A DNA stretch of 64,000 bases from an uncultured Gammaproteobacteria bacterium (GTDB lineage: Bacteria > Patescibacteriota > Patescibacteriia > Magasanikbacterales > UBA922). Positions 15,680-57,992 of the stretch are shown in pieces. The notes beneath the pieces were generated by a model. It was given only the letters and a program-made list of their open reading frames with translations. It had not been told where the DNA came from and did not search any database. The stretch's first letter is position 1; every line of letters starts with the position of its first letter. A program made the translations under genes and the position numbers. The stretch is taken from contig CAYMVY010000002.1 of NCBI GenBank assembly GCA_964394405.1, positions 192,092-256,091 on the forward strand, given 5' to 3'.

Positions 15680-16046
15680 TTGCACCTGGTGGATGCAGAA
15701 ACAGTGTACTGCAGAAGTTTCCGGGTTCGTTGCTCGGCACTGGTCCTTGAGATAGTTCCTGGTGTGTAGAGCCATAGGCGGGAGACTGAGAGATCGTGTG
15801 CGGTGTCTACATGGAGCATCAAATAAGGAAAGATCCGAATAGTCGAAAGGCATCGGTACGGGCATTGCTCTCGAGCGGGCCTACTTACACGTCTTATCCT
15901 CGATTTGATGCGATGAAGTGGAGACGTCCCGCACGGAGGATCGTCGTTGAAATACCGCCCTCTAGGAGCGAAATACATTCGAAAGGATTCTGCATCCACC
16001 ACCCTACCCCGCCGACACTTGTGTCCGCGGGGTTTATCTTTTTTAT
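15680..16046 (+). ncRNA. candidate GC-rich structured non-coding transcript of about 360 nt, identity unknown
   Basis: consensus-like promoter (TTGACA at 15651) upstream; about 55% GC region with no credible ORF on either strand; ends in a strong intrinsic terminator; no RNase P, tmRNA or SRP motif found by eye. Confidence 0.25.
16007..16046 (+). terminator. intrinsic terminator (copy 1 of a duplicated terminator)
   Basis: CCCCGCCGACAC-tt-GTGTCCGCGGGG followed by TTTATCTTTTTT. Confidence 0.7.
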
Positions 16047-16112
16047 ACAGTTTGACCAAAACACTATTCTATAGTATACACTCCTTATCCCACACATCGG
16101 AGGAAAAGGGAT

Positions 16113-16475
16113 ATGACGATCAATAATCTCATGGGCACTCAGTTCGTTATCGCGTCCTACAAGATCAAGGATGAGCTCTTCATCCACGGAGGTCCGGATG
16201 CAAGAATAGTAGCAAAAGGAATCCTCCGGTACATGGTTCAAAGCACCCTCACAGAAAATCCTCAGGCAGATGTCAGCCGCCTGATGGAAGATGCAGTGGC
16301 GCTCACACCTACCCTCAAGTACCTGAGTGTCGACGAGCTCCACGAGATCACCAGTCGGGCAGCTGACAATGATCTCGATGCAAGAGTCTTCGAATTCATG
16401 CTTGAAGTACTGCGAGGGTCAGTCCCGACCGAAGACTCCTTCCTCGGGAAGGTGAAAGTTCCCACCATACCCTAA
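16113..16475 (+). CDS. hypothetical protein, GC-rich
   Basis: 120 aa; strong SD GGAGGAAAAGGGAT before the ATG; about 55% GC versus an AT-rich backbone. Confidence 0.5.
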   Translation: MTINNLMGTQFVIASYKIKDELFIHGGPDARIVAKGILRYMVQSTLTENPQADVSRLMEDAVALTPTLKYLSVDELHEITSRAADNDLDARVFEFMLEVLRGSVPTEDSFLGKVKVPTIP

Positions 16476-16493
16476 CCCAGCCGGAGAAACACC

Positions 16494-16706
16494 GTGCCTG
16501 ATCGATACTGCACCACTTGCAGAAAACCCATCAGCGATACCTCACGCCCGCATACACGCATGATCGATGCCATGAATGGAGGTGTCGAGATCATAGAGTG
16601 CGTGGGCGGCATACTTGTCGATGCATCTGCGCTTGGACGCAATCCGCGCTGGTCGTACATCGACTACTCGAGCCACGTGACCGGGATTCACCCCAACGAT
16701 GGCTGA
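16494..16706 (+). CDS. hypothetical small protein (GTG start), GC-rich
   Basis: 70 aa; GGAG 7 nt upstream of GTG; 18 nt after the preceding ORF; followed by a terminator. Confidence 0.4.
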   Translation: MPDRYCTTCRKPISDTSRPHTRMIDAMNGGVEIIECVGGILVDASALGRNPRWSYIDYSSHVTGIHPNDG

Positions 16707-16732
16707 GGTTCATTGGACCAGCTATTGCGCGA

Positions 16733-16769
16733 CCCCGCCGACACCATGTCCGCGGGGTTCATCTTTTTT
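16733..16769 (+). terminator. intrinsic terminator (copy 2, near-identical to 16007..16046)
   Basis: CCCCGCCGACACCATGTCCGCGGGG followed by TTCATCTTTTTTAT. Confidence 0.7.
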
Positions 16770-16806
16770 ATATGTACTTTTCTTTTCTCTTTTTTACTTT
16801 TAACCT

Positions 16807-18355: not shown

Positions 18356-19105
18356 TTAGTGATTAAATTGAATATGATGCATCGCTCCATCATATGTTTT
18401 TTCTACTAACTCACGCGTAAACACTTCTTTGGTAGGGCCATACGCAATCACCGTTCTTTTTACCAATGCGATATAATCGCAATATTCTGAAAGCGAGGTG
18501 AGTTCATGTGTAGAAAGAATAATTGTTTTTCCTTCGGACTGGAGTGTGAGTAGTAATTGTGTAAGCGATCGTTCACTCTTGGCATCAACTCCGGCAAATG
18601 GCTCATCAAGTAACAGAATCTCGGCACCATGTGCGAGTGCTCGCGCTACGAATACACGTTTTTTTTGTCCGCCAGATAATTCTCCGATTTGTCGATCTTT
18701 GTATTCAGACATTCCGACTTTTTCAAGTGCACCCTCTACCATTTTTTTGTCTTTTTCAGTCGGGGTACGAAATATATTCTGTGATCCATATCTTCCCATC
18801 ATAACCACATCATACACAGACACTGGAAAATCCCAATCGACCAATTCATTTTGCGGTACATAGGCAACGAGCCCAAGCTTCTGTGCAGTTTTGGGATTTT
18901 TTCCACAGACTAACACGCTACCTTGGTCAGGCTTTACTAATCCCATAATCACTTTGAACAGAGTAGACTTCCCTGCCCCATTCATTCCGATAATTCCAGA
19001 AAAACTTTTATACGGAATTGAAATCGATGTATCACGAAGAGCGATATACTCATGATACTTCACTGATACATCTCTTATTTCTATTGCAAATTTATTTTCT
19101 GACAT
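18356..19105 (-). CDS. metal ABC transporter ATP-binding protein (ZnuC/MntA-like)
   Basis: Walker A GMNGAGKSTL, signature LSGGQKKRVFVARAL, Walker B ILLLDEPFAGVD. Confidence 0.85.
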   Translation of the reverse strand: MSENKFAIEIRDVSVKYHEYIALRDTSISIPYKSFSGIIGMNGAGKSTLFKVIMGLVKPDQGSVLVCGKNPKTAQKLGLVAYVPQNELVDWDFPVSVYDVVMMGRYGSQNIFRTPTEKDKKMVEGALEKVGMSEYKDRQIGELSGGQKKRVFVARALAHGAEILLLDEPFAGVDAKSERSLTQLLLTLQSEGKTIILSTHELTSLSEYCDYIALVKRTVIAYGPTKEVFTRELVEKTYDGAMHHIQFNH

Positions 19106-19112
19106 ACATACA

Positions 19113-20042
19113 TTATTCGCCTTTCAATCCTTTAATAATTGTCTCAACGGTGTGTTCAAGTAATTTCAAATATGTTGGTGCCGGTCCATCTGTAGCTGAT
19201 AATGAATCTACGTAGAGTACGCCTCCCATGCGGCTCCCTGATTCTCGTACTACTTCCTCTTGAATTCTCGGTTCAATCGTACTTTCACAAAATACTGCGG
19301 GAATCTTGTTTTTCTTTACTTCCTCTACCACATACGCAATTTGTTGTGGACTTCCTTGTGATTCATCATTGATTGCCCAGAGATATAATTCTTTCATTCC
19401 ATAATCTTTTGCAAGATAACTAAACGCTCCTTCACAGGTCGTCAAATATCTTTGACTCTCAGGAATTGTTGCAATAGATTCTCGCAATTTTGTATCGAGG
19501 GCTTGTATTTTTTCAGAATAGATTCGTGCTCGTTCGGCAAAATACTCACTATCACTAGGCGAAAGTTCGGCGAGTGCACTTCTAATATTTTCAACATAGG
19601 TAAGAGCTTGCGCAGGAGACATCCATGCGTGTGGATTTGGTTTATCCGCATATACACCTTCTGCGATAGGCACGATTTCAATTCCTTCACTAATCGTCAC
19701 ATGAGGAACGTCAGGAATACTGGTATAGAGTTTATTCGCCCATACTTCCAGATTCATTCCATTATCAAAAATAATATCAGCTTGTGATGCACGAATGAGG
19801 TCCCCTGGGGTTGGTTCATATCCATGAATTTCCACTCCGGGTTTGGTAAGTGAAATGGCTTCGATTCTATCTCCCCCGACTTCACGGACCATGTCTGAAA
19901 TAACGGTGAAGGTGCTAAGTACGGTAAGTTTGTCATTGACAATTTTTTCGCCCGCGACTCTTTTTTCGTGAAAGGCAAAAAATAAGATAGTCACTACAGC
20001 AAGCGCAATCGTAATAAGTAAAAATATTTTATTTTTGTTCAT
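19113..20042 (-). CDS. metal ABC transporter substrate-binding protein (cluster A-I, TroA/ZnuA/MntC-like)
   Basis: N-terminal signal/TM; conserved metal-ligand His contexts (EIHGYEPTP, PHAWMSP). Confidence 0.8.
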   Translation of the reverse strand: MNKNKIFLLITIALAVVTILFFAFHEKRVAGEKIVNDKLTVLSTFTVISDMVREVGGDRIEAISLTKPGVEIHGYEPTPGDLIRASQADIIFDNGMNLEVWANKLYTSIPDVPHVTISEGIEIVPIAEGVYADKPNPHAWMSPAQALTYVENIRSALAELSPSDSEYFAERARIYSEKIQALDTKLRESIATIPESQRYLTTCEGAFSYLAKDYGMKELYLWAINDESQGSPQQIAYVVEEVKKNKIPAVFCESTIEPRIQEEVVRESGSRMGGVLYVDSLSATDGPAPTYLKLLEHTVETIIKGLKGE

Positions 20043-20045
20043 AGT

Positions 20046-20180
20046 CTATTAACTCAAAGCTTAAAACTCAAAACGCAAAACGATAACTTAAGTCTAAAAA
20101 CTAATTATTATATTTAGTTTTTAATTTTTTAGTGTAGTTTTGAGTTTTGAAATTTGAGTTTTGAAATTTGAGTTTTGCGT
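20046..20180. repeat. AT-rich imperfect-palindrome intergenic element ('caaaactcaaa' family); right arm carries an internal tandem duplication
   Basis: aactcaaagcttaaaactcaaaacgcaaaacgataact ... agttttgagttttgaaatttgagttttgaaatttgagttttgcgtt. Confidence 0.7.
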
Positions 20181-20187
20181 TACACGT

Positions 20188-20595
20188 TTACACTTTCTTT
20201 ATCCTCTTCCCATGCGGATCCTTCTTCGGATTCCCCAAAAAATTTGCGAGACGTTTTATTACCTCATCTGAAAATGCATGTTCAAGTCTGTGCGCTTCGT
20301 CATGCACTTTTTCTGGGTCAATGCCCAGGATTGTGTGAAGAAAAAATTCGATGAGACGATGTTTGTAGGTGAGTTTTTCGGCAAGAGTTAATCCTTGCTT
20401 CGTAAGACTGATTCCACCACTTCGGTCGGTTTTTATTAACCGAGCGCGTTCGAGATCGTGAACGCGTTCTGAAACAGTCGATCTAGCGAGACCTAGATAG
20501 CGTGAAATGTCGATAATACGAACCTGTAGTCCCTGTTCATGGAGCGAATATACTGCTCGAACATAATCTTCCCTTGTAGGAGTTGTTTTTCGCAT
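20188..20595 (-). CDS. mntR: DtxR/MntR family metal-dependent transcriptional repressor
   Basis: N-terminal wHTH (ISRYLGLARSTVSERVHDLERARLI), then a metal-binding/dimerisation helix with His/Glu ligands; heads the metal ABC operon. Confidence 0.8.
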   Translation of the reverse strand: MRKTTPTREDYVRAVYSLHEQGLQVRIIDISRYLGLARSTVSERVHDLERARLIKTDRSGGISLTKQGLTLAEKLTYKHRLIEFFLHTILGIDPEKVHDEAHRLEHAFSDEVIKRLANFLGNPKKDPHGKRIKKV

Positions 20596-20604
20596 AAAGC
20601 ACTT

Positions 20605-20622
20605 TGTTCGTATATACGAACA
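20605..20622. promoter_or_regulatory. perfect 18-bp palindrome TGTTCGTATATACGAACA: candidate MntR autoregulatory operator overlapping a -10-like TATATA
   Basis: perfect dyad symmetry 10 nt upstream of the mntR ATG; centre reads as a -10 hexamer. Confidence 0.45.
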
Positions 20623-20806
20623 TCACTATATCACACTTGAACACTCTCGTCAAGGATCGAATTATCCACCAAATAAGCATTGACAAAGTGCTCATTTTGA
20701 GATACCCTTTCTTGAGTTTGACTATGCAGCATTCGCGGCACATCAAACTCTCGAGTCGACCAAAAGGAAGACCGAATTCACAACGACACAAAGGAGTACA
20801 ATCGCC

Positions 20807-21022
20807 ATGCCCAATACCATACAGGACCGGAACTCCAATCGGTACGATCTCCCAGAGTTCCCGAAGCGCGGTTCCCTGCGCCACGACGGCATGACCGCCG
20901 CCTCCACCACCTCCCCGTCCAGCAAACGTGGAGGAGAATACCAGGTCGGCCATGACCCGGAAGAGGAGGTCGAACCCACCCAGATGGTCAACCACTTCTT
21001 CGGCCGGGGACGGAGAGGGTAG
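20807..21022 (+). CDS. hypothetical small protein, GC-rich
   Basis: 71 aa; SD AAGGAG 10 nt upstream; promoter-like TTGACA-17-TACCCT at 20683-20711. Confidence 0.3.
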   Translation: MPNTIQDRNSNRYDLPEFPKRGSLRHDGMTAASTTSPSSKRGGEYQVGHDPEEEVEPTQMVNHFFGRGRRG

Positions 21023-21127
21023 GTCGGTTCGCAAGTTTCGAACGCGTACAACCACATACGGGCCACTCTGGTTCCCGCATGACGGAAGTACGCGTTCGGA
21101 CTCTCTCAAAAACGATATTCATTATTC

Positions 21128-21157
21128 AAACGCCTTATGGGCGATTTTTTGTTTTTT
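21128..21157 (+). terminator. intrinsic terminator (copy 1 of a duplicated terminator)
   Basis: CGCC-ttatg-GGCG followed by ATTTTTTGTTTTTT. Confidence 0.6.
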
Positions 21158-21177
21158 AACCTATCCACCCCCTACTC

Positions 21178-21206
21178 TTGACAGCATATTCACTCTATGC
21201 TAGTAT
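21178..21206 (+). promoter_or_regulatory. sigma70-type promoter TTGACA-17-TAGTAT
   Basis: exact -35 consensus, 17-bp spacer, TAnnnT -10. Confidence 0.55.
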
Positions 21207-21292
21207 CTTTTGAAGTTTGGACTGGCTATGCATTCGCTTGCCATGCGACCAGACTTTTTCTGTGACACCTGCGACGAGACAGGAGAGTCCTC

Positions 21293-21478
21293 ATGAAGGA
21301 TCCCCCGATGACCAGCATCAAGGGAAACAATCCCAACATTCCGGCGATGACGAACGGCAACAACCTCGACCGGCCGATGGACGCCGGCACCAAGAAGAAG
21401 GGCACCGACCGCGACCGCTACGCGCGCGCGAAGAAGATCTCGATGAAGGGGCACGGCGGCTCGAAGCCGGCGGCCTGA
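21293..21478 (+). CDS. hypothetical small basic protein, GC-rich
   Basis: 61 aa; SD GGAGAG 5 nt upstream of the ATG; alternative overlapping 98-aa ORF 21217..21513 is low-complexity. Confidence 0.35.
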   Translation: MKDPPMTSIKGNNPNIPAMTNGNNLDRPMDAGTKKKGTDRDRYARAKKISMKGHGGSKPAA

Positions 21479-21517
21479 TCGAGCGCGGCGAGCGAGCTCC
21501 TACCAACCCCTAGACCA

Positions 21518-21677
21518 AAGGAGGTCCTGGTGCGGAAGTACGCAGTGTTCTAGATGGGCTCACACCGAGCCCTCCTCGGCACCTTCCTAGGGCGACAACG
21601 ACGCCGTCGCCCACAACCTCTCAACGGAGGAAAGATGAGGAAGTACGCAGTGTTCTAGATAGGCTCACACCGAGCCT
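21518..21677 (+). repeat. tandem direct repeat (2 x about 42 bp, period 105 bp), each unit = SD + 7-codon mini-ORF M-R-K-Y-A-V-F + stop + GGCTCACACCGAGCC hairpin
   Basis: AAGGAGGtcctgGTGCGGAAGTACGCAGTGTTCTAGATGGGCTCACACCGAGCC at 21518; GGAGGAAAGATGAGGAAGTACGCAGTGTTCTAGATAGGCTCACACCGAGCC at 21626; both in the same frame. Confidence 0.6.
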
Positions 21678-21817
21678 CCCACGCGCCCGCACGCATCCCC
21701 TACCACGACGCAACCAACGGTACGGGAAATGCTTCGGACGCACCTGGCGCCGCGCCCTCGCATGAACTTCGGTTCAAGCGACGGGTGCGGCGCCAGACAC
21801 TCAATTCAATCATTCTG

Positions 21818-21846
21818 AAAACGCCTTATGGGCGATTTTTTGTTTA
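21818..21846 (+). terminator. intrinsic terminator (copy 2, identical core to 21128..21157)
   Basis: AAACGCCTTATGGGCGATTTTTTGTTT. Confidence 0.6.
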
Positions 21847-21861
21847 TATAAGTGTCTTGCA

Positions 21862-21890
21862 TTGACAGAAAGATATAATTATGCTACACT
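21862..21890 (+). promoter_or_regulatory. sigma70-type promoter TTGACA-17-TACACT upstream of the membrane protein gene
   Basis: exact -35, 17-bp spacer. Confidence 0.45.
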
Positions 21891-22058
21891 CTTCCGTTCG
21901 TCTTTGACGAAAGATCTTTACATGAATTTAGCCATTTCCATGCATTTGGTCAGTATTGTGATATTTCAATTTTTGAATTATTGCACAACTGACTAAAAAG
22001 CTGAGTGGTGAAGTTCACTATTTGGTTCATAAGTCAAAATGTCAGCCAGGAGGCAGAC

Positions 22059-23030
22059 ATGTTCGGTAAGCTCTTCGAGGTGTTCAACATCGAGAAGTGG
22101 TCGGGCCTCGGCCTGACGCTTCTCACCTGTGTTCTTCTCATGACGACTGCTCGTGCGCTTCTTGCGCCGGGTGTCGTCGAGTTCCCTTCCGAGCTCGCCT
22201 CGGATGGTGACTACTGGAGTATGATTGCGATGAGCGCACTGCTCATCGCGGTCGATGCCATGCTGATCGTGCTCGTGTCCTGGTCCTCACTCAACACGCC
22301 GAAAGACGTGATGGGTGTCGCCCTCATGGTCGGGTTGACGCATGTCGTCTTCCCGCTCGTGACCTTCGGCCTCACCGCCGGCGCGACCTTCCTCAGCCAG
22401 CACACGGGCCTCCCGATGTGGTTGGGGCAGGGCATCCTCACGGGCATCTACCTCCTCGCGTTCTACTTCGTTGTGTTCCACCTCCGTGAGGTGCATCGCG
22501 GTATCCGCGAGGGCGAGTCGGACAAGCTCAGCTCGGACCAACCCGCGTTCACGCGAGCGTGGCTGCGGGTGATCTGGCCCATCGTGTTTGCGGTCTCGGT
22601 CGACGCCCTTCTGGTGGGACCGGCTAAGATCGCCTTCATGGCCCGCTACACCGAGACGCAGTTCATGATGAGCTTCGTCTTGATCGGCGGGAGCGTGTTT
22701 GTGCTCGTGATGAGCGCTGGCCTCTTGGTCCTCGCCCTCAAGAAGTGGATCGACAACCACGCGCGGATCTCGAGGAAGGTCCACCAGTTCGACTGGCTTG
22801 GGTCACTCCTCCTCGTCCTCGTCTTCATCCACTTCTCGGTCTTCGCCTTGGTGTACGTGCTCTACACGTTCATCCCGAAGGCATGGATCCTCGAACCCCA
22901 GACCATCTGGAGCGCTACCGGCGCCATCTTCCTCCTCTACCTCATCTTCGGACGAGTGGGGGAGATCAAGAAGGCGAGCCTCGAACGGGCTGGACTGGGT
23001 CCGGCCGAAGTCGAGAATGAAGCAGCCTGA
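22059..23030 (+). CDS. hypothetical polytopic membrane protein, GC-rich (about 58% GC)
   Basis: about 10 TM helices; start set at ATG 22059 preceded by AGGAGG-cagac; the ORF-track start at 22005 lacks an SD. Confidence 0.6.
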   Translation: MFGKLFEVFNIEKWSGLGLTLLTCVLLMTTARALLAPGVVEFPSELASDGDYWSMIAMSALLIAVDAMLIVLVSWSSLNTPKDVMGVALMVGLTHVVFPLVTFGLTAGATFLSQHTGLPMWLGQGILTGIYLLAFYFVVFHLREVHRGIREGESDKLSSDQPAFTRAWLRVIWPIVFAVSVDALLVGPAKIAFMARYTETQFMMSFVLIGGSVFVLVMSAGLLVLALKKWIDNHARISRKVHQFDWLGSLLLVLVFIHFSVFALVYVLYTFIPKAWILEPQTIWSATGAIFLLYLIFGRVGEIKKASLERAGLGPAEVENEAA

Positions 23031-23113
23031 TAGCTGAACCGAACAACAGGTTGGGGACGACATCATCATCACATGCGTGATCGGTGATGCCTGTCCCCTG
23101 CCTTAGTCTACAT

Positions 23114-23170
23114 AAAAAGCAGATAGCTAGTAGCAAAATCTTTGATACTGTACTATCTGCTTTTTTATTT
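23114..23170. terminator. bidirectional intrinsic terminator between convergent genes
   Basis: AAAAAGCAGATAG...28-nt loop...CTATCTGCTTTTTTATTTT. Confidence 0.6.
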
Positions 23171-24135
23171 TACGTCACTACAAAATCTACATTTCTAATA
23201 TCGTATACATTTTTTCCTCCACTATACGAAATCGCACTTTGTAAATCTTCTTCTATTTCTTTGAGTTTCTGTTCATAAGTCATATTATTGCACTCAATAT
23301 GGCGCAAAAACCCTTCCACATGATGATTGGTACCCTTATTATACTCAGAGGCTGAACCAAAATAAATCTTTTTTATTTCCCCATCTACACTAATCGTCTC
23401 ACCTGGAGAATCAATGCAGCTACTAAAAATCCCTCCAGCCATGATGAGGTCTGCTCCTGCATGAATTGCTTTTGCGATATCTCCATTATTTTTGATACTC
23501 CCGTCAGCAATGAGAAGTGTCTTCAGGGAATGTTCTTTTTTTGCTTCACTGCATTCCTTTACACATGAATACATCGGGTATGTGAAACCTGTCTTAAACT
23601 TGGTAGAGCATGCAGATCCGCCACCAATCCCCACTTTTACTGCATCAGCTCCCCAATTACTCAAATCCACAAAAGCCTGTTTACTCGCAACATTCCCTGC
23701 GATAATAAAACAATTTGGGTAATATTTTCTTACGTGTTCCAGAATATTTTTGACAGCTGGACTATGGCCATGTGCAATATCAATCGTAATTGCATCAACT
23801 CGAAAATTTTTATCTTTGAGTGTACGGATACATTCATAATCAGCTTCTTTTACACCGAGAGAAAGTGAGATGAACATATCCTGATTTTTACCCACCCAGT
23901 CTATAATTTCTTCGTATGTATAAAAACGATGCAAAATGTAAAAATAATCATGCGTCGCCATCCATCGAGCAAGCATAAAATCAATCGTGCACTTCATATT
24001 AGCAGGCATGATTGGCAGTCGCCAACGACGGGAAGCAAAGGAAAGTGTTGTATCACACTCTGAACGCGAATTTACTACACACATTTTTGGCACGAGCCAA
24101 ATAGACGAGTATTCGAGTGCTCTATCCATAGACAA
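23170..24135 (-). CDS. guaC: GMP reductase (IMPDH/GMPR family)
   Basis: 321 aa; blocks LPIMPANM, TIDIAHGHS, IIAGNVAS, GADAVKVGIGGGSACSTKFKTG align with E. coli GuaC; no CBS insert. Confidence 0.75.
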   Translation of the reverse strand: MSMDRALEYSSIWLVPKMCVVNSRSECDTTLSFASRRWRLPIMPANMKCTIDFMLARWMATHDYFYILHRFYTYEEIIDWVGKNQDMFISLSLGVKEADYECIRTLKDKNFRVDAITIDIAHGHSPAVKNILEHVRKYYPNCFIIAGNVASKQAFVDLSNWGADAVKVGIGGGSACSTKFKTGFTYPMYSCVKECSEAKKEHSLKTLLIADGSIKNNGDIAKAIHAGADLIMAGGIFSSCIDSPGETISVDGEIKKIYFGSASEYNKGTNHHVEGFLRHIECNNMTYEQKLKEIEEDLQSAISYSGGKNVYDIRNVDFVVT

Positions 24136-27786: not shown

Positions 27787-27815
27787 TTGACAAAAGCAAA
27801 GAAATATGGTATTAT
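27787..27815 (+). promoter_or_regulatory. sigma70-type promoter TTGACA-17-TATTAT
   Basis: exact -35, 17-bp spacer, near-consensus -10. Confidence 0.6.
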
Positions 27816-27877
27816 GATTTGTCCTTTTGGACCGTTCGCCATTGGTGAATGAACTCTGTGACAAGGATACCAGAAAA

Positions 27878-28087
27878 ATGCTGAGGCATGAGTTTCTCCA
27901 GCAGTTCGATGCTATTGGCCGCAATCATGCGGTCAAAATCATCCAGTCCAACGGCGGAGAGTACGTGGCGAGGTGGCCTGATGTGAAGATCCACGCTCGA
28001 CACGTGAAACTCCCGGATGCCACCGCCCCCGCCGCCATCCGTGTGCCGTACGACGAGATCAAAGGTGTCACGAAGTACTCCGGGTAG
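27878..28087 (+). CDS. hypothetical small protein, GC-rich (start ATG 27878; alternative TTG 27827)
   Basis: 70-86 aa; AAGGAT 9 nt upstream of the ATG; about 55% GC. Confidence 0.35.
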   Translation: MLRHEFLQQFDAIGRNHAVKIIQSNGGEYVARWPDVKIHARHVKLPDATAPAAIRVPYDEIKGVTKYSG

Positions 28088-28184
28088 ACCGCGCAAGCAC
28101 ACCCAGATCTCACGCCCTGCCGTCCCGTGTTTGTCCCCCGACGTACGTCGAGGTCTCGACGAACACGGGCGGCACAAACACATT

Positions 28185-28207
28185 CACCGAAATACGGTGT
28201 TTTTTTA
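28185..28207. terminator. intrinsic terminator (T-run overlaps the mnmA stop)
   Basis: CACCG-aaata-CGGTG followed by TTTTTTT; preceded by a larger GC-rich stem CCGTCCCGTGTT...AACACGGGCGG. Confidence 0.55.
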
Positions 28208-29932: not shown

Positions 29933-31936
29933 TTACACCAGATCATCAAACGATATTTCCTCATCTTCATTCATTTTCTTTGGCTGACCCTCATTTGCAG
30001 CTGGTTTTGGTGGAGTTGGTGGGACTACTTTTTCCTCTACCACTGGTGCTGGTTTTGGTAAATCAACTTGCGGAGCAGGTCGAGGTGGAATGATTGGACG
30101 TGGTTCAGTAACACTAGGTTGTATTGGACGAACTTGTTCTTGCCCCACTTGAGAATTTCCTCCTTGATTTTGTGATTGACCCGAAAAACCTGACGACTGA
30201 CCACCTTGTTCACCCCCACCCTTATTACCTCTTCGTCTGCGTCTGCGTTTTTTTCCAGTTCCTGGAGTACCTGGGGCTTGAGAAGCTCCTCCTTGTCCAA
30301 AGGAAGAAGCCGGAGTAGTAGATTGTAGAGATCGTGATGGATTCTCGCTTCTAGACTGAACATGACTATCCCGGGGTGGTAGATCATTTTTAGGTTTCAG
30401 ATCGCTCAGAGAAATAGTCTTTTCTTCTCTAACTTCATTATTTTTTGGTTCAGGCTTTTTTTCCTCGTTTCTCTTTGGAGATTCCTGCTTTTGCATTATA
30501 GGTTTCGGTGCGGGTGGTAATTGAGGTTTTGGTTGTTCACTTGGTAATTTTTTCAATTCACTCATCCCTGAACTAATGAGTGGAGTTTCAATATCTTCTT
30601 CTCCTGCATCTTGCGCATCAGTCTCAGACATACTCCAACGACCAATCTTTTCTTCTACCAATTCTCGCTTGCGACCATATCGTTCACGTGATATTCGAAT
30701 CACCTTTTCCGCTGAATCAGTCGGATGTGCAAGTGGTGGTAAGGTCATAGCACTAAATGGATGTGACGCCACCCCATCAATCATGAGTTTTAGAATAATC
30801 TGGTATTTCGTGAGATTTACAATATCTTCTTCGGTAAATGTGGGAGTAAACTCTTTTACAAGCATCTCAGCATCAGCACCACCGATACGGAATGTTACAA
30901 TGGTTCCGACGTTTCCAAACACTGCATCAGCTACGACTTCGTCCAGCTGTGCCACATATTGATGCGCCATAATCAGACTCAGACGATATTTGCGAGCTTC
31001 TGATAAAATATTTGCAAACGATGGAGTTGCAAAATTTTGAAACTCGTCCACGTAGAGGAAAAAGTCCTTGCGATCTGGTTCTGGCGTATCAACGCGTTCC
31101 ATTGCTGATAGTTGCAGCTTGGTAATAAGCATACCTCCAAGCAAACGACTATTATCTTCACCAATTCGTCCTTTTGACAAATTCATGATAAAAATTTTCT
31201 TTGAGTCCATGATGTCGCGTACATTGATCGTTGATTTTACCTGCGCGACCATATTTCGAATAATTGAGACGGATAAGAATTGTCCAATTTTATTCTGGAT
31301 CGGTGCTACTGCTTCTTTTGCATATCGCTCATCATAATTCGCAAATTCATCACGCCAAAAAGCCTTTACTACCGGATCTTTGAGTTGACGCACGACTCGT
31401 TTCCGATAATTTTTGTCAGACAATAGACGATTGACCCCAAGTAGAGTAGATCCTGGGTAATCAAGTAACGCGAGTAGTGTATTGTTTAAAATATATTCCA
31501 TTCTCGAACTCCACACATCTGGCCAGATTTTCTTGAATGTACCCATGAGTCCTGAGGCGACCAAATGTTTCTGCTCTTCTGTCTTGACCTCAAGAATATT
31601 GAACCCAATCGGATTGTCGATATCAGCGGGATTCAAATATACTACATCATTCAAACGCCAGGATGGAATATGATTAATGATTTTTTCTGCAAAATCTCCG
31701 TGCGGGTCTACCAGTCCGATCCCATGTCCAGCGTAGATATCAGACAAGACCATATTCTCCATGATCGTTGTCTTTCCCATACCTGTTTTTCCAATCACAT
31801 ACATGTGACGACGTCGATCATCTGTTTTAATACCAAAACGACGCATTTGATTGCGGTAGGTTGTCTGCGCAAATACACAAATTTCCTCTCGCTCTTTTGG
31901 AACTTGTCCTGGAGTTGTCAAATGTGAGGTTGGCAT
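29933..31936 (-). CDS. P-loop ATPase, TraD/VirD4 (type IV coupling protein)/HerA-FtsK-like, with a long disordered Pro/Gly/Gln-rich C-terminal tail
   Basis: Walker A VIGKTGMGKTT, Walker B FFLYVDEFQNF, LIMAHQ motif; last about 230 residues low-complexity. Confidence 0.55.
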   Translation of the reverse strand: MPTSHLTTPGQVPKEREEICVFAQTTYRNQMRRFGIKTDDRRRHMYVIGKTGMGKTTIMENMVLSDIYAGHGIGLVDPHGDFAEKIINHIPSWRLNDVVYLNPADIDNPIGFNILEVKTEEQKHLVASGLMGTFKKIWPDVWSSRMEYILNNTLLALLDYPGSTLLGVNRLLSDKNYRKRVVRQLKDPVVKAFWRDEFANYDERYAKEAVAPIQNKIGQFLSVSIIRNMVAQVKSTINVRDIMDSKKIFIMNLSKGRIGEDNSRLLGGMLITKLQLSAMERVDTPEPDRKDFFLYVDEFQNFATPSFANILSEARKYRLSLIMAHQYVAQLDEVVADAVFGNVGTIVTFRIGGADAEMLVKEFTPTFTEEDIVNLTKYQIILKLMIDGVASHPFSAMTLPPLAHPTDSAEKVIRISRERYGRKRELVEEKIGRWSMSETDAQDAGEEDIETPLISSGMSELKKLPSEQPKPQLPPAPKPIMQKQESPKRNEEKKPEPKNNEVREEKTISLSDLKPKNDLPPRDSHVQSRSENPSRSLQSTTPASSFGQGGASQAPGTPGTGKKRRRRRRGNKGGGEQGGQSSGFSGQSQNQGGNSQVGQEQVRPIQPSVTEPRPIIPPRPAPQVDLPKPAPVVEEKVVPPTPPKPAANEGQPKKMNEDEEISFDDLV

Positions 31937-50479: not shown

Positions 50480-51379
50480 TTACTCTTCATCAAAAAAATC
50501 ATTGTCCATTTCCTTTATACTATATTGTATTTTTATTTGAACACCAACTTCATATTTAATCATCAAATCAGCAAGCTGTTCACCGTCGATTAAAATTATT
50601 TTATGGTTAAAAGCACTTTTTGCTTTATGTATTGCAGAATCATCAAAAATCGAAGTTGTTACAAATATACCTTTACTCACATCACCACTCATTGCTCCAA
50701 TAAAATTTCTAATATCCGGTTCCCTAACTTTATTTTTTTCATTATATCTTTTTGCCTGGATATAAATTTTCTCAAGACCTAATTTGTCTTGACTTATAAT
50801 ACCATCTATTCCACCATCTCCAGATTTTGGTGTTTCTTGAAAATCACCATACCCCATTTTTTGAAATAAAATTAAAACAACTTTCTGAAAAAAATAAGGA
50901 TTAGTGTTGTGCAATTTTTCAAGTAAGTCACTTTTTAAAGTTTCTTGAATATCTCTAAAACCAATATCAATCATGTCTTGTGGAGAAAATTTCTCCGAAA
51001 CTGCTTTACCTATTTCCTCTTTTGTTTTTTCACCTCCTCCAGATTTAAAAGCGACAAAAGATGGGTACTTAAATAAAAATTCCACATCAACACTCGCTAA
51101 ATTTAAGGAAAGAACTTTTTGACCCTCTTTGGTAATTTTTATCTTTCCTCTTTCAGGCTGTTCGACAAGTCCCGCTTTTTTTAAATATGTCCTGCCCCAT
51201 GATACCCTATCAAAAAACCTACTATAACCATTTGATACCGTCTCCTTTTTTTCGTCTTCAGTTAAATTAAAATATTCTTTTTCTAAAATATCTGAAACAT
51301 CTTTAATAGTCCTCATCTGTTCATCACCTAAAACTTTCAATATAGGTAACATTGTCTCATCGAATTTTGGAATTGCCAT
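50480..51379 (-). CDS. mrr: Mrr-family type IV (modification-dependent) restriction endonuclease
   Basis: N-terminal Mrr_N winged helix (MAIPKFDETMLPIL); C-terminal PD-(D/E)xK core GDGGIDGI...QAKRY. Confidence 0.8.
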   Translation of the reverse strand: MAIPKFDETMLPILKVLGDEQMRTIKDVSDILEKEYFNLTEDEKKETVSNGYSRFFDRVSWGRTYLKKAGLVEQPERGKIKITKEGQKVLSLNLASVDVEFLFKYPSFVAFKSGGGEKTKEEIGKAVSEKFSPQDMIDIGFRDIQETLKSDLLEKLHNTNPYFFQKVVLILFQKMGYGDFQETPKSGDGGIDGIISQDKLGLEKIYIQAKRYNEKNKVREPDIRNFIGAMSGDVSKGIFVTTSIFDDSAIHKAKSAFNHKIILIDGEQLADLMIKYEVGVQIKIQYSIKEMDNDFFDEE

Positions 51380-51395
51380 ATCTTTTGTTTTATTT

Positions 51396-52166
51396 CTAAT
51401 TTATTTTCTGAAAAATAAATAAATGTTCGTGCATAATCAAAAGGAAATTGTTTTCTTTTGATCTTTTTACCCAAAAACCTGTTGCCTTGCAATTAAACTG
51501 TCGCTTGATGATATCTTCTTTCAGCGCAAAACCTGTCTGCAAACACTTATCCATTATTTTATATGCAAGCGGCTGATACATCTTGTTGCGTCTCGTATCC
51601 CCCATAAGAATTGCGCAATATTTTCCCTTTTTCAGCACACGAAACAATTCTTTTACTACTTTTCCCATTTCTTCTACAAAAAGTTCAATATCATGGATAT
51701 TAGACAGATCGTCCTCTAGTTTTCCTTCACTGTATTTCACAATATCAGCGTATGGCGGATGTGTGAGTACGAAATCAATCTCTTCATCTTTGATAAAATG
51801 CAAATTTCGAGCATCGCATTTCTTTATCCGCTGTTTTGCTTTATTATCAACCTCAAAATTCAGTGCATTTTTTGTGCGCTCGAGTGCTTCTTCATTCACA
51901 TCAACACAAGTGATATGGCGATTCAATATTTTTGCCTCAATCGCTGTGGTACCACCACCAATCATGCAATCAAGTAAATGATCACCCTCTTTGGAATATC
52001 GCAAAATCAAATTCCGAGCAACCTCTGGTGCCCAGTTTCCACGCCAATCTGATTTGTGTGTTGCCCAGTTTCCACGACGAGGAAATGCCCAAACAGTTGT
52101 GCATTCTAGTTCAAAATTATCTGGGTGAAGTTTTACCTCCTTTATTTTCTGCATTTTCATTACCAA
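51396..52166 (-). CDS. DNA methyltransferase, N4/N6 family (DpnA-like second methylase; 256 aa)
   Basis: SAM motif LLDCMIGGGTTAIEA and catalytic THPPY; 7-nt overlap with the upstream REase gene; length equals S. pneumoniae DpnA (256 aa), figure quoted from memory. Confidence 0.7.
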   Translation of the reverse strand: MVMKMQKIKEVKLHPDNFELECTTVWAFPRRGNWATHKSDWRGNWAPEVARNLILRYSKEGDHLLDCMIGGGTTAIEAKILNRHITCVDVNEEALERTKNALNFEVDNKAKQRIKKCDARNLHFIKDEEIDFVLTHPPYADIVKYSEGKLEDDLSNIHDIELFVEEMGKVVKELFRVLKKGKYCAILMGDTRRNKMYQPLAYKIMDKCLQTGFALKEDIIKRQFNCKATGFWVKRSKENNFLLIMHEHLFIFQKIN

Positions 52167-53026
52167 TTTAATTTACTAAGAACACCATTTTCCACCATAT
52201 TCAAGTTAAACACATACTCATTATGATTATAAGTTTCTTCTAGTGGTCTTTTCGCTGTTTTCCAACCCAATCCATCTGTTATCCATACAAAATCAATATC
52301 TTGAGATTTGAGTTCAGTATATAAATCTCTAAATTCTCCAGCAACTGCTTTTAGTTTTGATCCTCCTCCGTTATAAAAATTAACTTCAAATAATTTCAAC
52401 TTCTTGCTCGAAGGATTAAAGACAGCAAAATCAAAACTTCTCTCAGATTTGTTAACCCGAACATCAATGCCCCACTTATTCCTAATATCTGTTGCTCTAG
52501 ATTGTCTTAAATATTCAAGATTATTTTGTTCACAAAGATTTTCTATATGAGCCTCCACTATTTTTTCCATAAGACTTCCTCCTCGATTTTTTCTACCATT
52601 ACTATCCAGACCAACTTCGACACCAATGACGTAATCAACTAAATTCTTTATTCCCTCTTTTTTAAATAAATTAACCAAACCTGTTTTTTCAAGAAAATTA
52701 AAATACTTTTCCGAAGCACTATCACCCACTTCAGGATTACGGAAATTAAGGAGCTCAACACTACCGTCACTCAAATTAAATATTTCTAATTCTTTTTCAC
52801 GAACTGCTAGTAACACAGGTAATGCTTTTACAATATCAGGATTACTCACAAATAACTTTTTAAACTGTGATTTTAAATCCTCTTTTCCCAAGAGATAATT
52901 CAACTTATTGAGAATAATTTCAAGTTCCGCACCTCCTGCAAAAACTTTCTCCCAATTTACAAAATAATCCCAAGTTTTAATTGAATTTTTAAGCGTAGCT
53001 ATTAAATTTTGAAAATCCATCTTCAT
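52160..53026 (-). CDS. DpnII/MboI-family type II restriction endonuclease (GATC), 288 aa
   Basis: length and gene context (between the Dam-like and the second MTase, as in the dpnM-dpnA-dpnB cassette); the DpnII family is assigned from memory of the family, not by a search. Confidence 0.55.
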   Translation of the reverse strand: MKMDFQNLIATLKNSIKTWDYFVNWEKVFAGGAELEIILNKLNYLLGKEDLKSQFKKLFVSNPDIVKALPVLLAVREKELEIFNLSDGSVELLNFRNPEVGDSASEKYFNFLEKTGLVNLFKKEGIKNLVDYVIGVEVGLDSNGRKNRGGSLMEKIVEAHIENLCEQNNLEYLRQSRATDIRNKWGIDVRVNKSERSFDFAVFNPSSKKLKLFEVNFYNGGGSKLKAVAGEFRDLYTELKSQDIDFVWITDGLGWKTAKRPLEETYNHNEYVFNLNMVENGVLSKLNW

Positions 53027-53029
53027 ACG

Positions 53030-54778
53030 TTAAAACATTTTAATTTGTTTGAATATTTTTTCACCTAAATCACCACCTCTTTTTTTAATTGCCACTTCCG
53101 GATTATCTACAAAAATATTTCTGTATTCACCTAGATCTCGATTAAATTTAAATTTTGATTTTGAATAAATATTTTCAATTTTCTTATCTAATATATCGTT
53201 ACCGGCATCATTATTATCCTGTTCATGCAGTAACGTTAAATTACCAATTTTATTTACAAATCCAGCAACCTGTTCTTTGGTGAACCCCCATTTTACTGGG
53301 TTCTGTGGGAGAATGTGTTCAATATTTGGATCTAAGATAGCTATCCCTCTATCACTAAAATCATAATTCCTCATTACTTCTGTAAGCAGATAATCAATTA
53401 ACTTCGAATCAGACCCATACTCTAGATTATTAGAAAAATTTTTCACAAATTCGTCCATTTTATTCACTAAAGAGAATAATGTTTTAAATTTTTTTCCAAC
53501 TTCTCGCTGATAATCTACTCCGCTATAACGTGTTGCACTCTCACATATAGAAGCAAATATCTTTTCATAATCAGATGGATTAACACTTACAAATTTAGCC
53601 AGTATGGCAAAATTAAGAAGTCTAACAACATCCTCACGGAAATTCCCGGTCTTATAACTTGAATCGTTTAGTTTTTTACTATACAGAGCAAGTAAAACTT
53701 CAAATACTTGCTCTAGTCCGTTTAGATGCCTAAACACTCTTATTATTCTCTTTGTCTTTTCATCTTTTTTTAATAAAGATAAATTTCCATCATAATCTTC
53801 AAATCGAAATCCTATATATATTTGAGCATCCTGGAGTAGTTCTTTCGTGAATTTCAAAACATCATTACCTGATTTTCGCTCAATTTTTTCTTTTTTAATA
53901 ATTTTAAAAAGTCTAGAACTGGAAATAAGCCCATTTCTGGAAATCCAGTAGTGTCTTAGAAATTTCGGAAAAAGAACGGTCTTTGTATTCTCGAATAGAG
54001 ATTCAATTTGACTCCAATTTATTTCAATACTCTCTCGTATACTCCTTGTTTGTGTTGATTTTAATACAGCATTTTTTAATAGATCTGCAACCGAAAGACC
54101 CAAGCCAGTAGAGTTCAGTCCTTCAAAAAGATCATACACGTCATTTTCTGATCTTACAACAATAGCAATAAATTGTACCGATAATATCTTTTGGATCAAT
54201 TTATCTACCTCATCTTCTTTTTTATCTTTTATCTCTTTTTTCACCAAAGTAACAATATATCTAAGATTAGACAGGTATTTAGATTGATTATCATCAAGTT
54301 TTCCATCGAATTTGTCTAAACCAATAACATCTGGGCTTTCTATTAAATTCTGATATATCTCAATTAAATTTTCCTTTCCTGGAATAAGACGGGGATGTTT
54401 CTGTTGTGTTCTAGGGTTTCTCCAATATAAATAGTCATCAACAAGATTAATTAATTCCTTGATAGAGTTAGTAATATATTTCTCCTCATATTGAGAGAAG
54501 ATATATTTAAAAGCAATCAAAAATAAAGAGATTGTTGTTAATCTTTGTTGTCCATCAACAATGACCAGACTATCATCTGACTCTTCAGATGGCTCAAGAC
54601 AGACAAGGTTACCTATAAAGTACCCGTCCTCAGCCTCCACCAGAACTTCCCATAGTTCTCCCACATGAGAAGTCTTCCATGCATATGGTCTTTGGTTATG
54701 GGGCATGGAGAACTTTTTATAAGTATCACAAAGTGTTGAGTAAGTATAGGGTTTAGTATCAACAAAATTATTTATCAT
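53030..54778 (-). CDS. GmrSD/BrxU/SspE-like DUF262 + DUF1524 protein (ParB-like NTPase/nuclease plus His-Me finger)
   Basis: N-terminal DUF262 DGQQR motif (IVDGQQRLTT); C-terminal DUF1524 HxxP (IEHILPQNP). Confidence 0.8.
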   Translation of the reverse strand: MINNFVDTKPYTYSTLCDTYKKFSMPHNQRPYAWKTSHVGELWEVLVEAEDGYFIGNLVCLEPSEESDDSLVIVDGQQRLTTISLFLIAFKYIFSQYEEKYITNSIKELINLVDDYLYWRNPRTQQKHPRLIPGKENLIEIYQNLIESPDVIGLDKFDGKLDDNQSKYLSNLRYIVTLVKKEIKDKKEDEVDKLIQKILSVQFIAIVVRSENDVYDLFEGLNSTGLGLSVADLLKNAVLKSTQTRSIRESIEINWSQIESLFENTKTVLFPKFLRHYWISRNGLISSSRLFKIIKKEKIERKSGNDVLKFTKELLQDAQIYIGFRFEDYDGNLSLLKKDEKTKRIIRVFRHLNGLEQVFEVLLALYSKKLNDSSYKTGNFREDVVRLLNFAILAKFVSVNPSDYEKIFASICESATRYSGVDYQREVGKKFKTLFSLVNKMDEFVKNFSNNLEYGSDSKLIDYLLTEVMRNYDFSDRGIAILDPNIEHILPQNPVKWGFTKEQVAGFVNKIGNLTLLHEQDNNDAGNDILDKKIENIYSKSKFKFNRDLGEYRNIFVDNPEVAIKKRGGDLGEKIFKQIKMF

Positions 54779-54781
54779 ACT

Positions 54782-55798
54782 TTAATAGTTTGTCACTAAA
54801 ACTTCAGTGATCTTCCCTCTATTTGCACTCTTCGAATTTATCGCTCTTCCAGCCTCCACTTTTGAAATTCGAACCCCTTTATGTCCTGAATAAATTTTAT
54901 TGATAAAAGGGGTGTCAGAATTAGAAAGCATTACAAAACAACCACGCTTGTGCAATTCTAAGAACGTATTCCGTAGTTCTACCTGTTCTTTATCAAGAAA
55001 ACTATCTTTTGTATATGATGTAAACGAGGCGGTCTTGCTCACTGGATAGTATGGCGGATCGAAATAAATAAAATCACCTTTTTTTGCTTTTTTCAGAACC
55101 GCTTTATAATCTTGATGCTTTATTTCTACATTCTGCAATGCTTTTGAGACTTTCCTCAGGTTCTCAGCATCACAAATTAATGGATTGGTGTATCTGCCAA
55201 ATGGAACATTGAATTCTCCCCTGCTATTGACTCGGTACATTCCATTGAACCCAGCTCTATTAAGAAAAATAAATCGAGAAGCAATTTGTAAATCCGATAG
55301 TTTTTTTGGATTCTGCGAACGAACTTTCAAGAAAAAATCTTTATCGTATTTATATTTTTTCAAAGACGTAATCAATCCTTCAACATTATTTTTTATTACA
55401 TTATATGTTGTTACCAACTCAAAATTCATGTCCGAAAGAAATGCTTTTTCTGGAAGTAAATCGAAAAAGACTGCGCCACCACCAACAAATGGTTCAAAAT
55501 ATCTTCCTTTTTTTGGATCAAACTTCTCCGGAGGATATAAATCAAGCAATCTAAACTGTTTTAACAATTGACGTTTTCCACCTACCCATTTCACAAATGG
55601 TTTTGGTCGCGCATCAATTATTTTTGCAATTTCTTGTAAAAAATCAGTCGCATTCGACACCATTCCCAAAACACGCTTAGCATAAATAGTATTGATATCA
55701 AAAACTTTTTGGATTTCTTTCACCTTTTGATTATGCGTCATATGTAAGCATGGGTTTACTATGATTTCATAGTACCATATAAACGCTTTTTTGTTCAA
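54782..55798 (-). CDS. dam: Dam-family N6-adenine DNA methyltransferase (GATC-type, DpnM-like)
   Basis: FVKWVGGKRQLL SAM-binding motif, FDPPYY catalytic motif; the ORF-track start is probably about 45 codons too long. Confidence 0.85.
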   Translation of the reverse strand: MNKKAFIWYYEIIVNPCLHMTHNQKVKEIQKVFDINTIYAKRVLGMVSNATDFLQEIAKIIDARPKPFVKWVGGKRQLLKQFRLLDLYPPEKFDPKKGRYFEPFVGGGAVFFDLLPEKAFLSDMNFELVTTYNVIKNNVEGLITSLKKYKYDKDFFLKVRSQNPKKLSDLQIASRFIFLNRAGFNGMYRVNSRGEFNVPFGRYTNPLICDAENLRKVSKALQNVEIKHQDYKAVLKKAKKGDFIYFDPPYYPVSKTASFTSYTKDSFLDKEQVELRNTFLELHKRGCFVMLSNSDTPFINKIYSGHKGVRISKVEAGRAINSKSANRGKITEVLVTNY

Positions 55799-57812: not shown

Positions 57813-57902
57813 AGTAATCGTATGGTTATATATAAAGTATAACAACAAGAAATAACAAGTACAAACAATATGTAGTGACAAATGGATACAATATGTTAGT
57901 AT

Positions 57903-57931
57903 TGACAACAGGGGTCTTTTTGGCTAGAGTC
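57903..57931 (+). promoter_or_regulatory. sigma70-type promoter TTGACA-17-TAGAGT
   Basis: exact -35; followed by a GCTTACC-gcagt-GGTAAGC hairpin in the leader. Confidence 0.5.
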
Positions 57932-57992
57932 ATACGCTTACCGCAGTGGTAAGCAGATGATCAACCGTCCATTCGGAAACAGGAGTCTAGAG

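Follow-up and report, generated by a model that had tools for sequence, protein, structure and literature searches.

Two tandem seven-codon mini-ORFs on an accessory cassette of a Patescibacteria chromosome: candidate heptapeptide minigenes with an mccA-like layout

Known short genes and the present locus

The gene mccA, only seven codons long, encodes the precursor of microcin C and is found on a plasmid of E. coli, in H. pylori and in many others (PMC4231749, PMC6495379). It has a very strong Shine-Dalgarno (SD) sequence, a stem-loop lies directly past the bound ribosome, and without a bound ribosome the message is unstable (PMC4231749). Its translation is reiterative, without release of the ribosome, and the optimum is seven codons; the MccA peptides universally end in Asn, which is the site of adenylation by MccB, and mccB is adjacent (PMC6495379). 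Minigenes of this type have 7 or, rarely, 8 codons, and a gene for an export pump is also a neighbour. The present report concerns two tandem repeats in a 64-kb stretch of DNA (contig CAYMVY010000002.1; hereafter the window, meaning the whole stretch that was analysed), each of which contains an open reading frame (ORF) of seven codons with a strong SD before it and a hairpin immediately after it.

To our knowledge, mccA is the only well-studied bacterial gene of seven codons known to yield a product rather than to act as a leader, and genes of this size are invisible to every gene caller. The locus in the window resembles mccA in the length of exactly seven codons (in all four copies considered below), in the strong SD, in an apparently direct translation without leader or processing, and in the downstream stem-loop; the peptide also starts with M-R. 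It differs in that the C-terminal residue is Phe (TTC) in 4/4 copies, not Asn, and in that no ThiF/MccB-like gene was revealed when the 36 window ORFs of 200 aa or more were all scanned against Pfam. The minigene is, moreover, tandemly duplicated, located 3' of another ORF, provided with an anti-SD partner for each SD, and carried by a host of the candidate phyla radiation (CPR). Judging from the sequence, mccA is the closest known architecture, and the mini-ORFs are not members of the mccA family.

Other short translated ORFs should be considered as well. The leaders of ermC, ermB, ermD, cat86, cmlA and msrD are SD-driven ORFs of 6-19 codons with a selected peptide and with hairpins remodelled by the ribosome, and ermA has two tandem leader ORFs. 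The antibiotic-inducible leaders known to us are without exception located before a resistance gene and act on its ribosome-binding site (RBS) or on a terminator, whereas no gene comes after the present units and what lies next downstream is not conserved. The bar minigenes of phage lambda and artificial minigenes have a strong SD and two to a few codons, on which ribosomes are retained and translation is repeated; the sequence of the bar peptide is irrelevant, the effect being peptidyl-tRNA drop-off in Pth-deficient hosts, while in our case the peptide sequence is conserved. In the Drosophila gene tarsal-less (polished rice), one RNA contains several 11-aa ORFs with one conserved motif, and the peptides are of 11-32 aa. 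The likeness is in the tandem mini-ORFs for the same short peptide on one RNA and in conservation at the level of the peptide, not of the nucleotides; unlike our locus, that system is eukaryotic and has neither SD nor hairpin architecture. Finally, the cassette that carries the mini-ORFs recalls the "morons" of phages, autonomous units of promoter, gene and terminator that are inserted between genes and have atypical base composition, in that it is also inserted between resident genes and varies in close relatives. Unlike morons, it is chromosomal in a CPR bacterium, with no phage genes nearby and no PHROG match, and its G+C content at third codon positions (GC3) is above that of the host, not below it.

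The repeat units and conservation of the peptide

We consider it probable that both mini-ORFs are translated and that their peptide is under selection. The sequence-only reading of this DNA described tandem repeats 105 bp apart, each with an SD, a GTG or ATG start, the same heptapeptide and TAG, and with a hairpin straight after each stop; these features are confirmed. The direct repeats (21531-21578 and 21636-21683) are 48 nt each and 90% identical, with 105 nt from start to start in the repeat search; the 64 kb contain exactly two occurrences of their 36-nt core, AAGTACGCAGTGTTCTAGATRGGCTCACACCGAGCC (shuffles: 0.00 expected), and the two copies coincide at 38 of 39 nt. The SD is AAGGAGG or GGAGG, 4-5 nt from the start codon, and 5/6 of the minigene codons end in G or C. 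The hairpin, a 6-bp stem, begins after a gap of 2 nt and has no U tract; its free energy is -9 to -11.6 kcal/mol over the four copies. The region of 371 nt folds with a z-score of -6.8 relative to shuffles. The SD of unit 1 is predicted to be partially paired, with P(unpaired) of 0.35 in the window and 0.31 in the relative described next; for unit 2 the values are 0.05 and 0.01.

A diverged copy of the cassette, with mean column identity of about 86%, is found in a sequence of 928 bp (L033) from an independent metagenome run, SRR7663065. Its two mini-ORFs are GTG CGG AAG CAC GCG GTA TTC TAG and ATG AGG AAA CAC GCA GTG TTC TAG, both encoding MRKHAVF. They differ from each other at 5/24 nt (GTG/ATG, CGG/AGG, AAG/AAA, GCG/GCA and GTA/GTG), and all five differences are silent. 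According to a Monte Carlo estimate, the ORF and the peptide remain intact after five random substitutions with a probability of 1.25e-4, or 5.8e-4 under a fourfold transition bias. The mini-ORFs of the window and L033 show three further silent changes and one replacement, Tyr to His, which is present in both copies; a T/C change in the 2-nt gap between stop and hairpin is present in both copies, too. Since the window copies are near-identical over the core, the simplest reading of such parallel changes would be gene conversion in the window lineage.

All four copies retain the SD, the start, seven codons, TAG, the gap of 2 nt and the stem of the hairpin. No indel is observed in the mini-ORFs, while their flanks contain indels of 4 nt, 3 nt and about 90 nt and the unit spacing is 105 nt in the window vs 196 nt in L033; the paralogous units can be aligned only in the core of ORF and hairpin, and barely outside it. 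The hairpin stem is paired in 24/24 cells of the four copies, with one compensatory replacement of the closing pair (G-C to A-U) and three variable loop positions; with four sequences, hairpin conservation alone has little statistical weight (134/500 shuffles are as good). In the frames of the opposite strand, 5 of about 24 residues change between the two genomes. Silent-only change together with the diverging translations of the minus strand singles out the seven-codon frame of the plus strand.

Several other readings of the frame were considered and rejected. The 61-aa ORF upstream and both mini-ORFs share one frame in the window, which could imply read-through or recoding of UAG; the offsets in L033 are 47 and 196 nt, not multiples of 3, so the in-frame arrangement of the window is accidental. 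The 34-aa ORF 21554-21658, which starts at TAG-ATG, loses its ATG in L033 (TAGACG). No longer conserved gene over the units is common to the window and L033 on either strand.

Nor is the unit widespread in contexts that lack the SD. Pattern scans of viral contigs, metagenome contigs and GTDB genomes produced no copy of the unit beyond those of the window and L033. The degenerate pattern RTGMGNAARTAYGCNGTNTTYTAR matched at 3 loci of viral and 23 of metagenome contigs, 0 of them GC-rich or with a hairpin; the count of bare MRKYAVF* matches is close to a rough chance estimate (which assumes about 1e12 bases), and they are found in unrelated, mostly AT-rich DNA. The pattern of peptide plus hairpin had a single chance match in GTDB genomes, in a Calditrichia genome, and nothing was found in viral collections scanned for the unit and for the terminator. 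Rfam 15 gave no match with E <= 1 in 19000-24000 and only three tRNAs in the whole window. The string named for searching at the DNA level is GTNTTCTAGAYRGGCTCAC, together with the 3' half of the 61-aa ORF.

A separate observation from these scans concerns L008 (6094-6117, -), L020 (722-745, -) and L025 (62-85, +), where an SD is followed by ATG AGR AAR TAT GCA GTG TTT TAA, again MRKYAVF*. These sequences belong to an unrelated group with 32-35% GC, and a conserved 254-aa gene follows the mini-ORF at a distance of 22 nt; in L020 the mini-ORF is located just past the apparent 3' end of a tRNA gene (by-eye reading). The upstream flank diverges in this group and the changes in the mini-ORF are silent only. 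The identity of the peptide may be a coincidence, since the search pattern required this peptide.

Table 1. Features of the mini-ORF cassette (positions in the window) and GC3 of the genes concerned
Feature	Positions	Strand	GC3	Basis or remark
71-aa ORF of the preceding cassette			0.78	
Left 36-nt terminator copy: terminator of the preceding 71-aa cassette, left cassette boundary	21119-21154	+		repeat search; terminator-like site 21131-21143 and T run
Near-consensus sigma-70 promoter TTGACA-17 nt-TAGTAT, TG upstream of -10	21178-21206	+		10/12 matches
5' stem-loop at the predicted transcript start	21214-21255	+		centroid fold; nearly invariant in L033
61-aa ORF MKDPPMTS...KKISMKGHGGSKPAA, hydrophilic, basic, first cistron	21293-21478	+	0.92	codon-position GC
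Anti-SD CCCCU and SD AAGGAGG, unit 1	anti-SD 21507-21511; SD 21518-21524	+		sequence; kept in the 4-copy alignment
Mini-ORF 1, GTG CGG AAG TAC GCA GTG TTC TAG (M-R-K-Y-A-V-F)	21530-21553	+		sequence, repeat, ORF listing
Hairpin H1, GGGCUC-ACACC-GAGCCC	21556-21572	+		2 nt past the stop of mini-ORF 1; -11.5 kcal/mol
Spacer hairpin GGGCGAC-AACGACGCC-GUCGCCC between the units	21590-21612	+		folds
Hairpin of anti-SD CCUCU, CAAC and SD GGAGG, unit 2 (SD 21626-21630)	21617-21630	+		sequence; identical in L033
Mini-ORF 2, ATG AGG AAG TAC GCA GTG TTC TAG (M-R-K-Y-A-V-F)	21635-21658	+		sequence, repeat, ORF listing
Hairpin H1', AGGCUC-ACACC-GAGCCU	21661-21677	+		2 nt past the stop of mini-ORF 2; -9.1 kcal/mol
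Long GC-rich hairpin, UUCG loop, 14-nt arms 93% complementary	21744-21796	+		inverted-repeat search and folds
Right 36-nt terminator copy: cassette terminator (stem 21822-21834 and T run)	21810-21845	+		repeat and terminator search; also ends the L033 cassette
323-aa membrane protein	22059-23030	+	0.85	
Resident genes			0.30-0.36	

A proposed role for the mini-ORFs and its rivals

We propose that the two repeats may be a pair of independently translated seven-codon minigenes for one heptapeptide, which would be fMet-Arg-Lys-Tyr-Ala-Val-Phe (fMet, formylmethionine) here and would contain His in place of Tyr in the sole known relative. The minigenes would form the distal part of a self-contained cassette composed of a promoter, a 5' stem-loop, the 61-aa ORF, the minigenes, a 3' hairpin and a terminator. 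The selected product would be the peptide itself, and two copies would be present for dosage. We presume that the layout works as in mccA, where reiterative translation and stability of the message would also explain the arrangement seen here: a ribosome on the strong SD and the seven-codon ORF, with the stem-loop at its downstream edge, would protect the short message and re-initiate without leaving it. Being 2 nt past the stop, the hairpin would be placed at the leading edge of the terminating ribosome; it could block 3' exonucleases and prevent downstream drift of the ribosome after termination. Translation would be kept low by the upstream anti-SD hairpins as long as neither a ribosome nor some condition has opened them, and the SDs predicted as mostly paired in both genomes suggest gated, not constitutive, initiation. 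For the peptide itself, the conceivable roles are those of a signal, an inhibitor, a partner of the 61-aa protein, or a substrate for some enzyme whose gene lies elsewhere.

Taken as a whole, the explanation by a pair of peptide-producing heptapeptide minigenes on an accessory cassette with mccA-like layout is put forward tentatively; we find it quite possible and hesitate to call it probable. The following weighs against it. The element is present in only two independent sequences, which makes the comparative evidence thin, and the near-identity of the window copies is possibly due to gene conversion. Both SDs are predicted to be largely paired, which fits regulated or weak translation, not maximal output. 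Mini-ORFs resembling gene heads in L003 (a related sequence) and L033 show that rearrangement of cassettes can yield mini-ORFs as by-products. The 64 kb contain no MccB/ThiF, ATP-grasp, radical SAM or dedicated exporter gene by the scans mentioned above. Finally, we know of almost no bacterial precedent for an unmodified cytoplasmic peptide of 7 residues with its own function.

A more far-reaching proposal is doubtful in our opinion, namely, that fMet-Arg-Lys-(Tyr/His)-Ala-Val-Phe is a functional, directly translated heptapeptide that an ultra-small CPR bacterium produces from tandem minigenes on a mobile, strongly promoted, GC3-rich cassette and that it represents a new class of "smallest genes" separate from the microcin C pathway. 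The peptide would then perhaps be a signal or inhibitor acting between the CPR cell and its host or neighbours, and the cassette would belong to a wider, undescribed system of accessory cassettes with high GC3 in low-GC genomes.

What appears new is a probably translated heptapeptide minigene outside the microcin C pathway, tandem-duplicated, in a CPR genome. The signature of selection on an ORF of seven codons is real and unusual; its evidence consists of two genomes, with no known partner gene. The tandem pair that shows it lies away from microcin C clusters of any kind, in a lineage (CPR/Patescibacteria) of largely unexplored biology. Should the peptide prove real, the locus would provide a second kind of directly translated heptapeptide gene, a concrete molecule that can be synthesised for CPR-host co-cultures, and a chance to examine in nature, independently, whether "7 codons plus a hairpin" is a ribosome-retaining design.

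Alternatively, the mini-ORFs could encode nascent-chain arrest peptides acting in cis: a stall, perhaps induced by a small molecule or antibiotic, would melt the stop-proximal hairpin and alter the folding, stability, termination or read-through of the cassette RNA. Conservation of the peptide is expected in this case, too. With Val6 or Phe7 in its P site, a ribosome would reach into the hairpin that begins 2 nt past the stop; the identical hairpins could in principle pair arm 2 with arm 3, in the manner of erm-type attenuators; and the penultimate Ala with Val6 in the P site fits the generally known context of chloramphenicol/linezolid stalling. The MRKYAVF* ORF before the 254-aa gene in the low-GC group hints at recurrence as a leader, although MRKYAVF* matches are at about the chance level, so that this group may be a coincidence. 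Against arrest, no gene is found later in the transcription unit, only the long hairpin and the terminator. The units are 3' of the sole sizeable ORF and are therefore not 5' leaders. In L033 the sequence after the same terminator is another cassette, which has a promoter of its own, as the neighbour in the window also does, so the membrane-protein gene downstream in the window cannot be a conserved target. No RBS or terminator depends on the hairpins whose arms could be exchanged. The pairing of an anti-SD downstream of H1 with the SD was rejected, since this anti-SD is absent from L033. We consider an arrest peptide unlikely. Thus, of the "translated leader peptides" suggested by the sequence-only reading, the peptide-conserving mini-ORFs stand on the silent-only differences in L033, and the leader role does not, given the 3' position and the absence of a regulated gene after the units. 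The related proposal of a stalling or attenuation leader device is not supported either, on the same grounds and given the lack of the cassette in L039, a close strain considered below. A standard leader of an amino-acid operon, which the sequence-only reading excluded, would carry a run of codons for the amino acid that regulates it; R-K-Y-A-V-F contains no repeated codon.

It is rather less likely that the mini-ORFs are non-functional relics, that is, duplicated fragments of gene heads or tails left by recombination of cassettes, with only an apparent conservation caused by recent duplication, divergence or conversion. Head fragments do occur in other cassettes (MKNKDPS* and MKNKDPTSKDR... 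in L003, MKNKDPPL* in L033) and are similar to the MKDPPM... of the 61-aa ORF. The 38/39-nt identity of the window copies suggests conversion, the 11-mer CGGAAGTACGC is common to the units and to a 3' untranslated region (UTR) element of the neighbouring cassette, and the whole cassette is dispensable between strains. Nevertheless, 5/5 silent differences between the L033 paralogues are unexpected for a decaying fragment (P ~1e-4), and the SD, start, stop, exact length and hairpin persist in 4/4 copies while the flanks have diverged beyond recognition and acquired indels.

We assign a still lower probability to an element acting as RNA, in which the succession of a hairpin, a 22-nt single strand and a hairpin binds RNA or a protein, such as the basic 61-aa product, and the ORF is incidental. 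The strong structure (the z-score given above), the conserved stems with one compensatory change, the location of the SDs within small hairpins and the Lys/Arg-rich nature of the co-transcribed 61-aa protein are compatible with it, as is the 100% nucleotide identity of the C-terminal half of the 61-aa gene between the genomes, which hints at nucleotide constraint or recent exchange. An RNA element explains neither the three-periodic, silent-only change nor the retention of alternative starts (GTG/ATG) and Arg codons (CGG/AGG), and no Rfam match was obtained at E <= 1.

A toxin-antitoxin-like RNA module of type I or III, which the sequence-only reading also listed and which tandem repeats with small ORFs on an accessory element might bring to mind, is hardly credible: the peptide has 7 aa with two basic residues and does not span a membrane, the cassette contains no toxin-sized hydrophobic ORF and no ToxN/AbiE-like, endoRNase or other toxin-sized gene, no promoter-like site is found on the minus strand in 21200-21850, and there are just two repeats with variable spacing (105 vs 196 nt). 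Type I modules pair a small hydrophobic membrane peptide, usually longer than 20 aa, with an antisense RNA that overlaps it, and in type III modules such as ToxIN an array of short RNA repeats in tandem stands directly before the gene of an endoribonuclease toxin.

The cassette and its genomic setting

The mini-ORF cassette is about 690 bp long, strongly promoted and GC3-rich; the mini-ORFs occupy its 3' part, after the 61-aa ORF, in one transcription unit, and mini-ORF 1 begins 51 nt after the stop of that ORF. The 61-aa product is rich in Lys/Arg, and GC1/2/3 of its ORF is 0.48/0.50/0.92 in its own frame only. The two 36-nt terminator copies are 92% identical and 691 nt apart (2 matches vs 0.00 expected). 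A GC-rich structured stretch with a UUCG hairpin and then a terminator (21822-21845) had been described downstream of the units, correctly so; the UUCG hairpin is kept in L033 with 1 compensatory pair, U-A to C-G (by-eye reading). The spacer hairpin is nearly invariant in L033, where 1 mismatch falls on the first stem base. The 3' half of the 61-aa ORF with about 25 nt past its stop (21375-21505 vs 121-250 of L033) is identical but for 1 substitution, against a divergence of about 10-14% in the remainder of the cassette; such near-identity indicates either constraint at the nucleotide level or a recent recombination mosaic.

The L033 homologue of the 61-aa protein, P0026, has 52 aa, with an in-frame 27-nt indel. 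It is the single homologue among 5.8 billion proteins, and an exhaustive HMMER search of 1.84 billion representative proteins yielded only P0026 as a relative, plus low-complexity noise. Public gene calls (L001/L035, Logan/NCBI) place this gene in a wrong frame (21262-21513, +) and give an 83-aa product, P0027, which matches nothing except itself. They also take an antisense 165-aa ORF (22287-22784, -) instead of the 323-aa membrane protein. Presumably, GC3-rich genes are miscalled because they violate the codon model of the genome.

The window has 41% GC and contains housekeeping genes of a small genome (rpoA, S4, IF-1, murG, ftsW, mnmA and a class II alanyl-tRNA-synthetase-family protein); among named relatives, the one nearest to its proteins is a metagenome-assembled genome of Candidatus Magasanikbacteria, and the window is therefore part of a CPR/Patescibacteria chromosome. 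A GC-rich island (about 20700-23050, 60-65% GC) is located between mntR (20188-20595, -, beside mntABC) and a guaC-like gene. It includes three transcription units, each with a near-consensus sigma-70 promoter, a stem-loop at the transcript start, a GC-rich ORF, 3' structure and a terminator. The mini-ORF cassette is the second of them, and its nearest neighbours are mntR, the 71-aa ORF, the manganese-linked membrane protein and the guaC-like gene.

As an accessory element, the mini-ORF cassette varies between strains and is gained or lost in one piece. Homology with L039, a 97-99% identical strain, extends up to 21150 and resumes from 23114; this strain therefore has neither the mini-ORF cassette nor the membrane-protein unit. 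No small cassettes are found between mntR and the membrane gene in L004-6 and L036; L003 shares the 71-aa cassette and has two unrelated cassettes in place of the mini-ORF cassette. An island of 60-65% GC with AT-rich consensus promoters could also be a chimeric assembly or an engineered insert. This was rejected: over 12.4 kb, L001 (a Logan assembly made independently) matches the window at 100% identity, which argues against an assembly artefact with the caveat that L001 may share the sample of the window, and the diverged cassette in another run and homologous cassettes in relatives exclude it as well.

Similar cassettes occur in the window at 15990-16780, 20670-21154, 21155-21845, 21855-23050, 27790-28200, 57900-58270 and 62540-63090 (-). 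They are built of a TTGACA-17-TAnnnT promoter, a 5' stem-loop (in the GC3-rich cassettes, analogous to that of the mini-ORF cassette), one or two genes with GC3 of 0.63-0.92, 3' stem-loops and a terminator. A duplicated terminator bounds the 16-kb island as well. The proteins of the cassettes in the window, those of the mini-ORF cassette included, have no match in Pfam, NCBIfam or PHROGs. This family of carriers (promoter, 5' hairpin, GC3-rich ORF and terminator), gained or lost between strains that are 97-99% identical, is an unexplained feature of these genomes.

The 3' UTR of the 71-aa cassette (21030-21110, +; 3860-3940 in L003) contains a 10-bp stem, GAACGCGTAC / GTACGCGTTC, which is kept in L003 by a compensatory change, GAGCGCGTAC / GTACGCGCTC. 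Its 3' arm includes the 11-mer CGGAAGTACGC that is also found in both mini-ORFs, which hints at common ancestry. The head-like mini-ORFs mentioned above are MKNKDPS* (7 aa, then a hairpin) at about 4127-4150 of L003, a 25-aa ORF at about 4262-4339 of L003, and MKNKDPPL* (8 aa) at 358-384 of L033, in the insert of about 90 nt between the MRKHAVF units. They start with M-K-N-K-D-P, their six shared codons differ silently only (AAC/AAT, GAC/GAT, CCT/CCG), and they resemble the MKDPPM of the 61-aa ORF. Either they constitute a second family of minigenes, or they are truncated gene heads.

The 323-aa multi-pass membrane protein of the third unit also occurs in L003 (5056-6027), L004 (5001-5993), L036 (949-1929) and L037 (4001-4972). 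It belongs to no Pfam family; it is beside mntR/mntABC in four relatives and beside GDT1 and Nramp genes in the fifth, and is probably a manganese-homeostasis protein. GC3 of its gene is 0.77-0.85 in relatives that are 78-82% identical in protein, against 0.28-0.42 in the neighbouring genes; such a sustained GC3 suggests that the bias is maintained and is not due to fresh transfer. Upstream of the gene is an AT-rich 5' UTR of about 170 nt (21886-22058, +; L003 4886-5056, L004 4846-5018, L036 770-948), about 80% conserved, with two long conserved hairpins, a few compensatory pairs and no Rfam match. It is a candidate for a new cis-regulatory leader, possibly a metal-responsive one.

Elsewhere in the window, mobile or accessory DNA is also indicated by a gene for a TrwB/TraG-like type IV coupling protein (29933-31936, -) and by a defence cluster (50480-55798, -) with Mrr, N6/N4 methylase, DpnII, GmrSD and a Dam-like methylase.

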